Positions 57,571-63,669 of a stretch of 64,000 nt of DNA are shown piece by piece. Numbering within the stretch: position 1 is the first letter of the stretch; each line of letters begins with the position of its first letter. Under the pieces are notes generated by a model. The model was not told the DNA's origin and made no database searches. It was given only the letters and a program-made list of their open reading frames with translations. Position numbers and translations under genes: made by a program. Location of the stretch: the NCBI GenBank assembly GCA_043824495.1, contig JBDRSV010000010.1, positions 1 through 64,000 of the forward strand. Direction: 5' to 3'. Source of the stretch: Candidatus Aenigmatarchaeota archaeon (GTDB lineage Archaea; Aenigmatarchaeota; Aenigmatarchaeia; QMZP01).

Positions 57571-57640
57571 CTTATTGGCACGAGTATCTAAACCACATCA
57601 ATAGAGCTTATTGGCATACTGGCATACTGGCACGGTCCTA
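57571..57640 (+). promoter_or_regulatory. Two copies of the TTATTGGCA-(TACTGGCA)n-CG motif upstream of the dead recombinase
   Basis: CTTATTGGCACG at 57571 (n=0) and 57607-57640 (n=2), then TTTATAT at 57649. Confidence 0.6.
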
Positions 57641-57685
57641 GGATCCAGTTTATATCTGATGAAAATCTACTCTAAAGTGATCCCT

Positions 57686-58423
57686 ATGCGTCTAGTACCC
57701 CAACTCTTAGATAAAATCGAACCCTTCGTTGATGAATTTAGGCAGTGGCCTAAAGGAGACATTCCTTCTTCCAAAGAAGGTAAGTGGCTTCAAGTTCAAA
57801 TGTCTCAATTCACACCACCTTTTGTCATTGAGAAGAATTATGAAAATAGTTTCATATCTTCTTCACATGTGGTAGATACAGAATTACTTGATGCTACCTT
57901 GAAGAGAAAAACAAATCTTCTCTCCAAGCAAGAAATAAGAATACTTATTGGTTCAACAAAAAACTTGAAACATAAAATATTATTACAACTATTGTATGGT
58001 TGTGGTCTTCAGATATTCGAAGCTATTGAGCTAAAGATAGATGACATCAACCTGAAAGAGTGTAGAGTCAACGTAGGAACGAGAACAGTTCCTTTATCAA
58101 CAAAAATGGTTCCACAACTGGAATTCTTGTTTAGATACACACAAAAACCAGATAATAATCACCTGTTTCCCAACTGGAACGGAGGTCACGTAACACCAGA
58201 AGATGCAGAACAGATCGTGAAATATGCATTCGCTGCTGCTGGGTTGAGACCAGTTTCCCCACACGCTCTTAGACACAGCTTTGCTTCACACCTCCTCGAA
58301 TACGGCGTCAGAATAGGAATAATACAAACACTTCTAGGAAATTATGATGCAACAAAAATGAGACACATGAAAATTTCAGAAGAAATGATCAAGAACGTGA
58401 AGAGTCCTCTGGATAAACTTTAA
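57686..58423 (+). CDS. Catalytically inactive tyrosine-recombinase paralogue
   Basis: GLQ replaces GLR, GKGxK loop deleted, LLGN replaces LLGH, no nucleophile Tyr. HALRHS and KSPLD retained. Start could be 57659. Confidence 0.85.
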   Translation: MRLVPQLLDKIEPFVDEFRQWPKGDIPSSKEGKWLQVQMSQFTPPFVIEKNYENSFISSSHVVDTELLDATLKRKTNLLSKQEIRILIGSTKNLKHKILLQLLYGCGLQIFEAIELKIDDINLKECRVNVGTRTVPLSTKMVPQLEFLFRYTQKPDNNHLFPNWNGGHVTPEDAEQIVKYAFAAAGLRPVSPHALRHSFASHLLEYGVRIGIIQTLLGNYDATKMRHMKISEEMIKNVKSPLDKL

Positions 58424-58430
58424 TTTTCAT

Positions 58431-58649
58431 ATGAGTCACAAAATCATAAGATATAGCAAACATACCATTAGAAGAAAATTAGAAAGAAACATTTCAGAAG
58501 AAGAGATAGAAGAAACAATCAGAAACCCTAATTATGTTTTATCTTCATTTGAAGAAAGAAAAATAGCTGTTAAACAAATAGCAGAAAGAACTATTCATGT
58601 AATCTACAATGAGGAAAAAACCCATATAAATATAATAACCGTATATTAA
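58431..58649 (+). CDS. DUF4258-like putative toxin
   Basis: YSKH..R..ER.ISEEEIEETI..P...IITVY pattern. Confidence 0.8.
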   Translation: MSHKIIRYSKHTIRRKLERNISEEEIEETIRNPNYVLSSFEERKIAVKQIAERTIHVIYNEEKTHINIITVY

Positions 58650-58656
58650 ATGTAAT

Positions 58657-58863
58657 ATGAAAATGACATATGACAAAGAGGTGGATGCAGCATACATTTA
58701 CCTAAAAGACACAATAAAAAAAGGCGAAGTAAAAAGCACACAAACCATGAACGAAAACATCATCCTAGACTTCGACAAAGATAAAAAACTCATCGGAATC
58801 GAAATTCTTTCTGCAAGTAAAGTAATACCCAAAAAGTCAGTAAAAGCACTACAAACAGCCTAG
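58657..58863 (+). CDS. DUF2283-like putative antitoxin
   Basis: YDKEVDAAYI...IILDFD....LIGIEIL.AS pattern. Confidence 0.88.
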   Translation: MKMTYDKEVDAAYIYLKDTIKKGEVKSTQTMNENIILDFDKDKKLIGIEILSASKVIPKKSVKALQTA

Positions 58864-59720: not shown

Positions 59721-59737
59721 AAACACTAGTTATAAGA
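59716..59737 (+). other. attI-like site (core GTTATAA at 59729-59735)
   Basis: GTTATAAGA pairs perfectly with TCTTATAAC at 61685-61693. No upstream R''/L'' arm found. Confidence 0.7.
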
Positions 59738-59791
59738 AATCGTTGGTCTTGATTGGTTAAAGGAGATCGCCGCCATTTGGCTTCGCCAAAG
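59729..59791 (+). repeat. Cassette leader repeat, copy 1
   Basis: Identical to 63578-63630 apart from a 10-nt insertion. Contains TAAAGGAGATCGCCGCC and the hairpin TTTGGC-TTC-GCCAAA. Confidence 0.9.
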
Positions 59792-59923
59792 ATAGCCTGC
59801 CTTCGGCAGTATATAGAAAGGGTATTCTTTGTTTTCGAGGACATAGGGAAGTAGTACTCATAAATGGGCATAATAAAGATTAAAAATAACACAACACCTA
59901 TATACTACTAAGGGATTGATAAT

Positions 59924-60845
59924 ATGAATCAAATAGAAATTAATAGAGAAAATCTTGAAAAGAGACTTAAGCAAGTAGGGCTTAGTTCAGATATATACAG
60001 CGTCAAACCAAAAAAATTTATTAGAATTAATACGAGACATCCAGTGAAAATAAGAGAATTACAGGAAAGACTTAATAGAAATTATGGAATCGAAGTAGAA
60101 TTTATAGAAACATGTATTGAGGAAATTTATGAATCAACAAACTCGGATATTGGAGGGTGGATTAGTGGTAAAAAGAACGAATTCTTTAATAAAAATTATT
60201 TTATTCAAGATTTAGCAAGCGTTATTTGTGTTAAAGAACTTGATTTAAAAGAGGGTCAATCTCTTCTTGAAACATGTGCAGCGAGAGGTTTCAAGTCTAT
60301 TCTGGCTCATGATTTAACACATGGAAAATTAAGAATAACAGCATTAGATATAGATCCTAAAAAAATATCAAATAATGATGGGATTCTTTAAAAAATTTGG
60401 AATAAATGCAGAAACCCGATTAATGGATTCCACAAAATTTCAAGGTCAAAAATACGATAGAGTACTGGTTGATGCTCCTTGTTCTGGTGAAGGTGTGACT
60501 GTGGTGTATGATGAGAAATTGAGAAGAGATGTTAGTGGATTTGATAATGTTGTGCAATATTCACAAGAAGATGTTGAAAGATTTTCAGAATTACAAGGAA
60601 AACTTTTACAAAGCGGTTTTGACCACTTAAAGAAGAGTGGAATCCTAAATTACGCCACCTGTACCTTGAATAAGATTGAAAATGAAAGCGTAATCCACGA
60701 ATTTCTTCAAAGAAACGGCGATGCTTCAGTTGTTAACTCTAATATTGATAAATATGGTATCAAGCACAAGGTTTCTAATCTAGGGGTAAGAATCTTGCCT
60801 GGAAAAACTAAGGGCTTTTACTTTACAAAAATTATAAGGAGATAA
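59924..60845 (+). pseudogene. RsmB/NOP2 RNA m5C methyltransferase split by a +1 frameshift in an A7 run (60359-60365)
   Basis: ORF1 has motif I-like ETCAARGFKS. ORF2 has VDAPCSG and YATCT. Removing one A gives ...DPKKYQIMMGFF... Confidence 0.85.
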
Positions 60846-60877
60846 TCTTCAAAAGAAGACAAAGAATCTATCACCGA

Positions 60878-61210
60878 TTACCTTGTCCTAAAACCAAACC
60901 TTTTTTCATAATTCTTGTGGTCTAGCCATTCTAGAATAATTGCGATGACTTCAATCTTGTCCCTTCCAAGAGAGTATAATAATCTCCACCCATTTGGTAA
61001 ATCATACTTCCAGAGATTGTCTATTCCATATTTCTTGATATATTCCTTTGGAATCAGTTTTTGTTTTATATGAATGAAAGCATTCGGATTCTTCTCAATT
61101 TCCTTAAAGGCGTTGCTTATACTATCATATAACCATTTCTCTCCAGGAGAATCCTTAAGATTGTCATACGCCTTCTTCACATTTTCGTCTGCGAAAACTA
61201 ATCGTGTCAT
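60878..61210 (-). CDS. RelE-like putative toxin
   Basis: NLWKYDLPNGWRLLY motif, translationally coupled to the upstream gene. Confidence 0.75.
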   Translation of the reverse strand: MTRLVFADENVKKAYDNLKDSPGEKWLYDSISNAFKEIEKNPNAFIHIKQKLIPKEYIKKYGIDNLWKYDLPNGWRLLYSLGRDKIEVIAIILEWLDHKNYEKRFGFRTR

Positions 61211-61485
61211 TTAATCAACAGATGTGGTTTACTCATGTACTTCTTTACAAGTTCTGGATTCCAAATCCAAACTACATGTCCTTCTTTGTCTGTGACAATC
61301 TTACCTGAATCCATAAGGTAATCGAAAACTACACAGAATGTTTGGTACATCATTTTCTTTGGGAGATGTTCCCAAAGCTGCCTTTTCTTGTACTCTCCAC
61401 TGTTATTTTTGATAAACTTCTCTACCATAAGTACAGTATCCAACTGTGGATAATGCAAAATTCCTTTCTCCATTAATTGTGGCAT
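61207..61485 (-). CDS. Putative antitoxin (winged-helix-like)
   Basis: Small gene upstream of the RelE-like gene, with a palindrome over its promoter. Confidence 0.65.
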   Translation of the reverse strand: MPQLMEKGILHYPQLDTVLMVEKFIKNNSGEYKKRQLWEHLPKKMMYQTFCVVFDYLMDSGKIVTDKEGHVVWIWNPELVKKYMSKPHLLIK

Positions 61486-61493
61486 AAAATCAC

Positions 61494-61519
61494 CTTGTTA
61501 TATATATTTATATAACAAG
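61494..61519. promoter_or_regulatory. Perfect 11-bp palindrome over the TA promoter
   Basis: CTTGTTATATA-TATT-TATATAACAAG. Confidence 0.75.
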
Positions 61520-61578
61520 TATTTATAAAGGTTTCGGTTGAGCCTAAAACATATCATAAGACAAAGAATCTCGTCCGC

Positions 61579-61595
61579 GGCGGCGATCTCCTTTA
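61579..61595 (-). repeat. Inverted copy of the 17-bp leader motif
   Basis: GGCGGCGATCTCCTTTA is the reverse complement of 59758-59774 and 63597-63613. Confidence 0.9.
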
Positions 61596-61795
61596 TTAGT
61601 TATGTGCACAACGACTCTGCGGCTGCTTCGCAGCCTTGCCTCGCATGGCGAAACCATTTCAGAATAGGAGAAATCCATGCTCGGTCTTATAACAAGCAGC
61701 TTGGCGGTTCGCTGCTGCTCTCCCAAATTCGATCTTTGCTATGAAGGCGGTCTCTTAAAACTAAAACATTTATAAACTGGATACAAATTATTGTT

Positions 61796-61993
61796 ATGAG
61801 CGAATTGAAGATGCATGGAAAACACCAAACTCAATGGGTTACTATATCCCTTGATGAATATGAGAGCATGAAGGCTACTCTCGAGATTTTATCTAGCCCT
61901 AAGGCGATGGAGAAAATTAGACGCGGTGAACAGGAAAGACTAGCTGGAAAGGGGCAGAAACTAGAAGATGTGAAGAAAGAACTTGGAATTTAG
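61796..61993 (+). CDS. Phd/YefM-RelB-like antitoxin
   Basis: ISLDEYESMKATLEILSSP..M..I motif. Confidence 0.8.
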   Translation: MSELKMHGKHQTQWVTISLDEYESMKATLEILSSPKAMEKIRRGEQERLAGKGQKLEDVKKELGI

Positions 61994-62244
61994 AAATCAT
62001 CTTTATGTAATATAGTATCTATTTGAACTAATTTCTCTTTTTCAATGATTACGTAGATGATTCTCCATCGCTTTTCAAATCTTAATTCCCACTTTCCCAC
62101 CAGAGGCCATCTTAGTGGCTTACCATAAATATCTGGATATTCCTTTAACTTTTCAATTTTCTTGAAAAATCGTCTTTGCATTTCTGCATCAAATTTCTTC
62201 AGATCCTTCTTGGCCTCTGGCATTATCTCGATATCATAACTCAT
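61990..62244 (-). CDS. RelE/ParE-family toxin
   Basis: GKPLR..L.G.WELRF...WRIIY motif. Confidence 0.9.
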   Translation of the reverse strand: MSYDIEIMPEAKKDLKKFDAEMQRRFFKKIEKLKEYPDIYGKPLRWPLVGKWELRFEKRWRIIYVIIEKEKLVQIDTILHKDDF

Positions 62245-62328
62245 GAAATATAATTAAATTCTATACTAATAAATCGGCCGCCCTTTAAAAGACCGGACTT
62301 TGCCAACCTGCTGATGTTAAATAACATA

Positions 62329-62883: not shown

Positions 62884-62981
62884 GTATTTTAGTGGATTTT
62901 AGAGGTTATATGATTAACGGTCTGCCTCCGTCATACGCTTCGTCGCTTCGCTCCTCGGTCTCAAACCAAGGTTTTCGACTT

Positions 62982-63064
62982 ATTTAACAGAAGTTTAAAG
63001 GTTCCGCTACGCTGCACCCACATTTTTTCTAAAAGAAAAACGTCTTATAACCCTAACGTTAAGT
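62982..63064 (+). other. attC-like site 2 (83 nt)
   Basis: ATTTAAC-AGAAG-TTTAAA-GG ... TTTTTCT/AGAAAAA hairpin ... TC-TTATAA-CCCTAAC-GTTAAGT. Confidence 0.8.
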
Positions 63065-63111
63065 GAAATTGCTACGAGCAAATTTAAATGTCTATTCTCT
63101 TTACATTAATT

Positions 63112-63522
63112 ATGGTTGATTTTATCAGAAAGAAATCCGAAAAGCCCACATTTTCACAGAAAGGGCTTGATGGATATCAATTTCTTTTAGAAAACAAGAA
63201 TGTAGAAGTATATTTCGTGGACGTGAAAATGGGGCATGATAATTACATTATTAGTAAAAAAATTACTCACATCTATTTTGTTATAGAAGGCGAAGGATTT
63301 TTCGATATAAGCGGAACTAAATTTGATGTTAAACTTGGAGATTTCATAGAAGTTCCGCCAAATAAGGAATATTGTTATTCAGGAAAAATGAAATTGTTAC
63401 TTATCATGAACCCGCCGTGGTTTGAAGGAAACGAAGAGATTACTAAGAAAAATCTTCTGTTGAATAGTTTGCCCTCCGCAACTCTCCCTTCGGTCGTCAC
63501 GGATCACTTAACAAAAGATTAA
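63112..63522 (+). CDS. Cupin-domain protein (cassette 63059-63512)
   Basis: H.YFVIEGEG.F.I.G...GDFIEVPPN cupin motifs. Reads into the att site; stop lies in the L'' arm. Confidence 0.85.
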   Translation: MVDFIRKKSEKPTFSQKGLDGYQFLLENKNVEVYFVDVKMGHDNYIISKKITHIYFVIEGEGFFDISGTKFDVKLGDFIEVPPNKEYCYSGKMKLLLIMNPPWFEGNEEITKKNLLLNSLPSATLPSVVTDHLTKD

Positions 63523-63584
63523 GACACTCACTACGTTCGTCCTAATTTCCTAAAGGAAACTAGTCTTAACCTCGAATGTTATAA
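63506..63584 (+). other. attC-like site 3 (79 nt)
   Basis: ACTTAAC-AAAAG-ATTAAG-AC ... TTTCC/GGAAA hairpin ... GT-CTTAAC-CTCGAAT-GTTATAA. Confidence 0.85.
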
Positions 63585-63630
63585 GAAATCGTTGGTTAAA
63601 GGAGATCGCCGCCATTTGGCTTCGCCAAAG
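63578..63630 (+). repeat. Cassette leader repeat, copy 2
   Basis: GTTATAAGAAATCGTTGGTTAAAGGAGATCGCCGCCATTTGGCTTCGCCAAAG. Confidence 0.9.
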
Positions 63631-63669
63631 AGGTTTAATATAAATATGAATTAAAACAAAGTTTAATTT

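Follow-up and report, generated by a model that had tools for sequence, protein, structure and literature searches.

A convergent toxin-antitoxin unit apparently lodged within an attC-like site of a Xer-linked archaeal cassette array

The attC sites of integron cassette arrays are interrupted by IS1111-attC insertion sequences. Interruption by group IIC-attC introns is also known (PMC3001079). In such cases a mobile element sits in an attC-type site of an array and enlarges it by 0.5-2 kb, carries its own mobility enzyme and targets attC specifically. Undisturbed attC sites are short, at 57-141 bp, as the sequence-only reading of the present locus had stated, and large centres lower their recombinogenic folding (PMC5371416). 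In bacterial integrons and the archaeal integrons of Ghaly et al. (2022; PMC9668308), attC has an inverted R''-L''...L'-R' layout with GTT-type crossover boxes, the head of each cassette is complementary to its own closing box, and the L boxes vary but pair; toxin-antitoxin (TA), acetyltransferase and methylase cassettes are typical cargo. TA cassettes are common in the archaeal examples, the integrases of which carry the IntI domain (PMC9668308). In sedentary chromosomal integrons such as the Vibrio superintegron, to go by the account cited in PMC9668308, TA systems with their own promoters are thought to stabilise arrays against deletion; in that account they are ordinary cassettes with their own attC. 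A different arrangement is that of the pdif modules of Acinetobacter plasmids (PMC13141974, PMC6449649), which are bracketed by inversely oriented Xer sites of 11-6-11 form alternating between two registers, are acted upon by a XerC/XerD heterodimer, may be empty, and very commonly encode TA systems.

The stretch of DNA analysed here, termed the window, comprises the first 64 kb of a 106-kb contig from a genome of 1.0 Mb, 35% G+C and approximately 80% completeness, which includes a tRNA with an intron; its relatives are labelled Aenigmatarchaeota or uncultured archaea. A cassette-like region begins 9 nt past the stop codon of a Xer-type tyrosine recombinase gene and ends at 63631 (Table 1). 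The recombinase scores 225.8 against the NCBIfam model XerA_Arch (NF040815), above the curated equivalog cutoff of 220, and 208.6 against the integron-integrase model TIGR02249, below the cutoff of 265; the latter match falls into two stretches, with the IntI-specific middle of the profile unmatched. Hence, unlike integron integrases, this enzyme lacks the IntI-specific domain and scores as XerA, and its gene is directed towards the array, not away. Directly upstream (57611-58863) lie a further recombinase gene, a shorter paralogue, and a DUF4258/DUF2283 pair; a DUF2283 gene likewise precedes the recombinase in a related genome, G039.

Table 1. Positions of the recombinase gene, recombination site components and TA unit in the window.
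Feature	Position	Strand	Remarks
Xer-type tyrosine recombinase, 278 aa	58884..59720	+	Pfam Phage_integrase and SAM_4; points into cassette array
Cassette 1 head box GTTATAAGA	59729..59737	+	Crossover between G and TT; exact complement of box at 61685
R'' box TCTTATAAC, 9 nt, closing cassette 1 and opening left half-site	61685..61693	+	9/9 complement of 59729-59737
Left arm: spacer and L''-type box (AAGCAGC TTGGCGG)	61694..61707	+	Pairs with 62300-62315
Residual inner att segment left of TA unit	61708..61745	.	Absent from TA loci elsewhere
TA unit left end: GGCGG, inner repeat CGGTCTCTTAAA (61748-61759), antitoxin promoter	61746..61795	+	
Antitoxin candidate, 65 aa, Phd/YefM-like C-terminal part	61796..61993	+	PF02604 20.9 bits, cutoff 29.8
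RelE/ParE-family toxin, 84 aa	61990..62244	-	Pfam ParE_toxin PF05016 35.4 bits, cutoff 23
TA unit right end: toxin promoter (minus strand GGCGGCCG ATTTATTA) and inner repeat TTTAAAAGACCG (62284-62295)	62265..62295	-	
Right arm: L'-type box and spacer (TTGCCAAC CTGCTGAT)	62300..62315	+	
R' box GTTAAATAA, GNAT cassette head	62316..62324	+	Crossover between G and TT; complement of 62980-62988
Compact att site e: R'' TTATTTAAC ... L' GTCTTATAAC ... R' GTTAAGTGA	62980..63066	+	
Compact att site b	63504..63586	+	'Empty' counterpart of the TA-bearing site of G027

Cassette 1, which lies upstream of the TA genes, is 2.6 kb long. It includes an RsmB/F-type methyltransferase present as two overlapping ORFs (59924-60845), the second of which covers profile positions 74-198 of 199, followed by a pair of genes encoding proteins of 92 aa and 110 aa (60878-61519); the latter protein has a C-terminus that looks RelE-like by eye and no family match. 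The same pair directly follows the recombinase in G039, in the same orientation as that gene (L020 1277-1894, counted in recombinase orientation), and is inverted in the window; the body of cassette 1, with a perfect inverted repeat of 9 bp at its ends, may have flipped. A palindrome preceding the pair (61494-61519) was considered as a recombination site and rejected, a similar one being found before the same genes in G039; it is more likely an operator or promoter of these genes. From the crossover box onwards, cassette 1 begins with a 108-nt leader, of which there are two full copies with 96% identity (window 59729-59836; contig C4 of the same genome, 29600-29707) and a third, 54-nt copy with a 10-nt deletion (window 63578-63631). 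A 17-mer of the leader, TAAAGGAGATCGCCGCC, is also found inverted at 61579-61595, and chaining this inverted copy (61693-61561) to 59729-59836 aligned the 17-mer alone. Integration of a simple element between the 54-nt direct repeats at 59729 and 63578 was set aside as an explanation of the region, as it leaves the internal box logic unexplained. Further downstream, a cupin ORF (63088-63522) extends through a GC-rich cassette tail into an R'' box, and its annotated C-terminus may not be real; the tail motif CTCCCTTCGGTCG also occurs in a cassette tail of another genome, G052.

The sequence-only reading had proposed that a complete TA module is enclosed in the loop of a 636-nt att site. On re-reading, the arms are as it described them, TTATAAC AAGCAGC TTGGCGG at 61687-61707 on the left and TTGCCAAC CTGCTGAT GTTAAAT at 62300-62322 on the right; the antitoxin and RelE-type genes do lie between them, and the inner repeat is complementary at 11 of its 12 positions. 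The two compact sites to which it likened this structure share the same arrangement, although their coordinates needed correction (to 62980-63066 and 63504-63586), as did the start of the R' box (to 62316). GTTAAAT at 62316 fits the consensus GTTRRRY and TTATAAC at 61687 is its inverted R'' counterpart. The R' box at 62316 is the complement of the closing box of the next cassette, TTATTTAAC at 62980 (in longer form, TGTTAAATAA at 62315-62324 was matched against 62980-62989), and GTTAAGTGA at 63058 is the complement of TCACTTAAC at 63504. As head and tail boxes are complementary in this manner, the first box of the left arm closes a cassette and the last box of the right arm opens one, just as in both compact sites. 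The two half-sites, 61685-61707 and 62300-62324, share one arm-spacer-arm layout in inverted orientation, with L''/L' pairing of AGCAG with CTGCT and TTGGC with GCCAA; the spacers are unequal on the left and right, at about 8 and 10 nt, and are 7-9 nt in the compact sites. Between the R''-L'' and L'-R' halves, the TA genes occupy the place of the 55-60-nt inner segment of the compact sites, which here extends to approximately 620 nt, in contrast to the 57-141 bp of entire attC sites (PMC5371416). They are therefore enclosed in the unit that the crossover boxes at 59729 and 62316 delimit, whereas the TA systems in the account of the Vibrio superintegron given in PMC9668308 do not lie between the halves of another cassette's site.

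Two site architectures are found in related arrays, namely single dif-like sites of 8+6+8 form (arm-6 nt-arm; L020 in G039 and L048 in G052) and doublets. The inner segments of the doublets span 55-190 nt across the window, L045 and L046 of G027, L053 and L084; two of those in G027 are mutually homologous, and a similar motif occurs in L053. The 6-nt spacer of dif is found in the G039 and G052 arrays only.

The TA unit has an unusual structure. Its toxin belongs to the RelE/ParE family, with a score against TIGR02385 (RelE_StbE) of 26.1, slightly below the cutoff of 27.9. The antitoxin candidate matches positions 40-70 of the PF02604 profile through its residues 17-47, corresponding to the C-terminal toxin-binding motif of Phd/YefM proteins; the remainder is unmatched, and a comparison with NCBIfam gave no match. 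Unlike typical members of that family it is only 65 aa long, with a match confined to those residues and below threshold. The genes are not an operon: in contrast to the single co-directional operon of type II systems of the RelE/ParE - Phd/YefM kind, they are convergent with separate promoters, and their stop codons overlap by 4 nt. An N-terminally truncated antitoxin or a rearranged operon was discounted, since homologues keep both the convergent layout and the length of 65 aa; the candidate is kept at full length in 18 aligned homologues, and the toxin alignment has a mean column identity of 70%. A structural model of the complex reached an ipSAE of 0.87 (best control 0.00), with a partner pLDDT of at least 84 and contact agreement between runs of at least 97%; the mark used is reached by 58 of 80 solved complexes and by two of 110 mismatched pairs, and the pass may reflect likeness, as RelE-type complexes have already been solved. 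The model supports binding between the predicted 65-aa and 84-aa partners.

Each gene has an archaeal promoter at its outer end. The antitoxin TATA box, TTTATAAA, lies at 61769-61776, and the promoter block cATTTATAAAC..ATACAAATTAT..ATG is kept in L035, L036, L039 and L040; GGCGG(C/T)CTCTTAAA at the left end is shared with G027. At the toxin end, TAATAAATCGGCC(GCC) is kept in L035, L036, L048 and L088, and both promoter blocks, the right-hand one reading GGCCGATTTATTA on the minus strand, accompany the unit wherever it occurs. Several copies also end in GC-rich inverted repeats (GCGGCGGCC...GGCCGCCGC). The inner inverted repeat, which the sequence-only reading had seen to bracket the two genes, is thus for the most part made up of the symmetric promoter ends of the unit itself, found again in G027, L048 and L088, and is not a feature of the att site. 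The same applies to a candidate right half-site hidden at 61749-61777 (GTCTCTTAAAAC..TTTATAAAC): both blocks are found elsewhere as the conserved end and TATA box of the unit, GTCTCTTAAAAC being common to the TA end in G027 and TTTATAAAC at 61769 being the TATA box that is conserved wherever the unit occurs. Candidate cassette boxes at 61790 (GTTATGAGC) and 62234 (TCATAAC) were also rejected, since they overlap the two start codons and these motifs, GTTATGA and TCATAAC, are not kept in homologues. No hidden half-site is recognised within the enclosed segment.

A second example, in which the TA unit splits a recognisable site, was found in G027, a member of the same family but of another genus. 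It has the same convergent 65-aa and 84-aa pair, with 76% DNA identity, at the end of contig C13 (L045 12890-13554, minus strand); its recombinase gene and first doublet sites are on contig C11, which breaks off just beyond them, and the two contig ends probably join. The unit is flanked by GGACTTAAC-AAAAA-GTTATGAC on the left and TCATAAC-TTCGAT-GTTAAGTG on the right, and the closing box complements the head of the cassette before it, which contains a gene for a 74-aa protein. Site b of the window aligns to both flanks, 63506-63549 to the left one with a score of 40 and 63551-63581 to the right one with a score of 33, neither of which was reached by any of 2000 shuffles. The break thus falls between positions 63549 and 63551 of site b, and the 559-nt insert carrying the TA genes lies exactly at the apex. 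Cofolding of the G027 flanks gives a ddG of -23.2, against -7.2 +/- 1.9 for shuffles. Judging from this alignment, the TA unit is able to sit at the apex of an att site.

The proposal had suggested looking in other genomes for the same arms around an empty loop. Such a counterpart exists across genera for the G027 site, of which site b is the unloaded form, but none turned up for the arms of the split site itself (AGCAG/TTGGC), a scan for an unsplit site in 91 genomes of the order, allowing up to three mismatches, giving only chance-like matches inside genes. The R'' box and inner segment of site b are conserved between the two genera beside unrelated genes, and L'' and L' boxes differ from site to site yet stay complementary; these comparisons suggest that doublet sites behave as units.

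The pairing of the arms is, taken alone, borderline evidence. When the 1500 nt upstream were scanned freely for a complement to the right arm, the left arm was equalled or beaten in 36 of 1000 dinucleotide shuffles, and other places in the window score as well against the right arm; when pairing was anchored at the two R boxes, p was 0.016. Against shuffled controls the claimed pairing exceeds chance only modestly, 3.6% of shuffles being as good in the free comparison. The compact sites gave p = 0.30 and 0.23 in the same anchored test. Cofolding the flanks of the split site as DNA gave a ddG of -10.5 against -7.1 +/- 1.7 for shuffles (p ~0.03), with the best cofold using pairs other than those of the proposed arm register. 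Nor is the register used in the best single-stranded fold of the 649-nt region (z = -1.1), contrary to the folding originally envisaged, and for the left arm a local hairpin, AGCAGC..GCTGCT, competes with this register and is preferred. The compact sites fold like shuffles (z ~0); hence, unlike integron attC, the sites in the window fold no better than expected of shuffled sequence. What lifts the observation above chance, in our comparison of sequences, is the position of the boxes together with the independent homologous case in G027.

The TA unit is by no means confined to att sites. A DNA search of the order identified it in six other genomes, with 69-77% identity and always convergent with the 4-nt overlap, and a degenerate-pattern scan of metagenomes yielded 44 further loci, at least 25 of which have the same pair with overlapping stop codons. 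It is an ordinary cassette in L084, and in L053 and L048, each of which includes a second gene. Chromosomal copies outside arrays, in the metagenome and G039 loci, lie between long direct repeats of the target, which measure approximately 100 nt (L077), 75 nt (L088), 45 nt (L081 and L098) and 35 nt (L042). No recombinase, transposase or intron is found within the unit; in this it differs from the elements known to interrupt attC sites, as it does in lying mostly outside att sites. Only two of approximately 30 readable TA loci are in split sites, so its position in the att site may be incidental. The idea that the TA genes are a built-in part of the recombination site is not supported by these distributions, the unit being self-contained and mobile with at least 25 other loci, mostly outside split sites. 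The conservation of the pair across these loci indicates a real mobile TA system, which is best read as a promiscuous module that on two occasions came to lie in the centre of an att site, a dispensable place, not as a designed part of it.

We consider it somewhat better than an even bet that 61685-62324 is a single attC-like doublet site of a Xer-linked cassette array, split near its apex by a self-contained TA unit. On this explanation a unit of approximately 550 bp would have inserted into a pre-existing compact site. With two convergent genes, an archaeal promoter for each and short GC-rich terminal inverted repeats, it would work in either orientation and could move among many genomic places. 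The outer R' box probably still serves as the crossover point. Cassette 1 and the TA unit would then be excised or lost together, because the crossover boxes between G and TT at 59729 and 62316 enclose both, and post-segregational killing would disfavour such loss. The TA cassettes of bacterial integrons offer an analogy that makes it plausible that the TA pair would punish loss of the site.

An explanation that we hold to be possible, though distinctly less probable, has no folding in it. The array would be a two-register row of modules between inverted double-stranded Xer sites, resembling the pdif plasmids, with the compact sites as empty modules and the TA unit as a loaded one; recombination between inverted sites would flip modules, and that between direct sites would move pairs of them. 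The match of the recombinase to the archaeal XerA model, with no IntI region, agrees with this, as do the single sites without foldback in the G039 and G052 arrays and the lack of a fold signal in the compact sites. Gene orientations are also mixed, the GNAT gene being on the minus strand and the 92/110-aa pair inverted relative to G039, and the TA unit is independent of orientation; the pdif plasmids themselves offer precedents for alternating modules, empty modules, near-universal TA modules, and inversions and deletions at the sites in experiments (PMC13141974). The L boxes, however, share no sequence (TTAAGAC, TTGGC, CGATTTACCG, GGGCTAAACG) although each of them pairs with its partner, so that recognition of structure fits better than a sequence-specific double-stranded arm. 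The spacers, at 7-10 nt and unequal between halves, also depart from the 6 nt of dif, and the R'' box and inner segment are conserved as one unit across genera. The window array further differs from pdif modules in being chromosomal and archaeal, with a single Xer-type enzyme and non-conserved inner boxes. The topology is the same on either account: if the array is integron-like, the TA unit would travel with the upstream cassette (59730-62316), and if it is a row of modules, the unit could also leave with the GNAT module or flip.

We think it unlikely that the split sites are still active in the stronger sense that the terminal repeats of the TA unit zip the ends together, with the site carrying an addiction module and the unit being a transposase-less selfish element with a preference for palindromic apices. 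Were this so, the att hairpin or synapse would re-form round a 0.5-kb loop, and removal of the site or cassette would kill the cell.

Slightly more doubtful still is that the complementarity of the arms is fortuitous, the left arm being the tail of cassette 1 with a decayed right half-site and the TA unit an ordinary cassette with a decayed left half-site, as which it would resemble its copies in L084, L053 and L048. The probabilities of 0.016 to 0.036 are only modestly small, and the right arm finds equally good matches at several unrelated places in the window. An L'-like block, GTCTCTTAAAAC, does lie 65 nt past the R'' box, against 61-63 nt in the compact sites, and is followed after 9 nt by TTATAAAC, but this block and TTATAAAC are the conserved left end and promoter of the TA unit in G027, L088, L035 and others. 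No R''-L'' half-site is found to the right of the toxin gene, and G027 is a clean split of a known compact site. Finally, it is very improbable that an att site has been caught capturing a gene pair as an intermediate of cassette genesis, which the sequence-only reading had offered as its alternative, for beyond the topology of genes flanked by two half-sites no evidence was found for it: the same TA pair already exists in finished cassettes and chromosomal insertions in many genomes, no duplication of a site is seen and no mechanism is indicated.

Within the literature library that was searched, no paper describes a TA pair lodged between two att half-sites, nor XerA-linked cassette arrays. 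If the split site is still used, the TA pair welded into it would protect a cassette or array against loss in a new manner, and Xer-type sites would tolerate a half-kilobase centre, which bears on whether they act as folded single-stranded or as double-stranded DNA. The convergent RelE-type pair with two promoters is in itself an unusual TA layout, widespread in environmental archaea. If the insertion is merely tolerated, the centre of the site would be dispensable, and G027 and the window would provide a natural pair of loaded and empty sites for these undescribed archaeal arrays.
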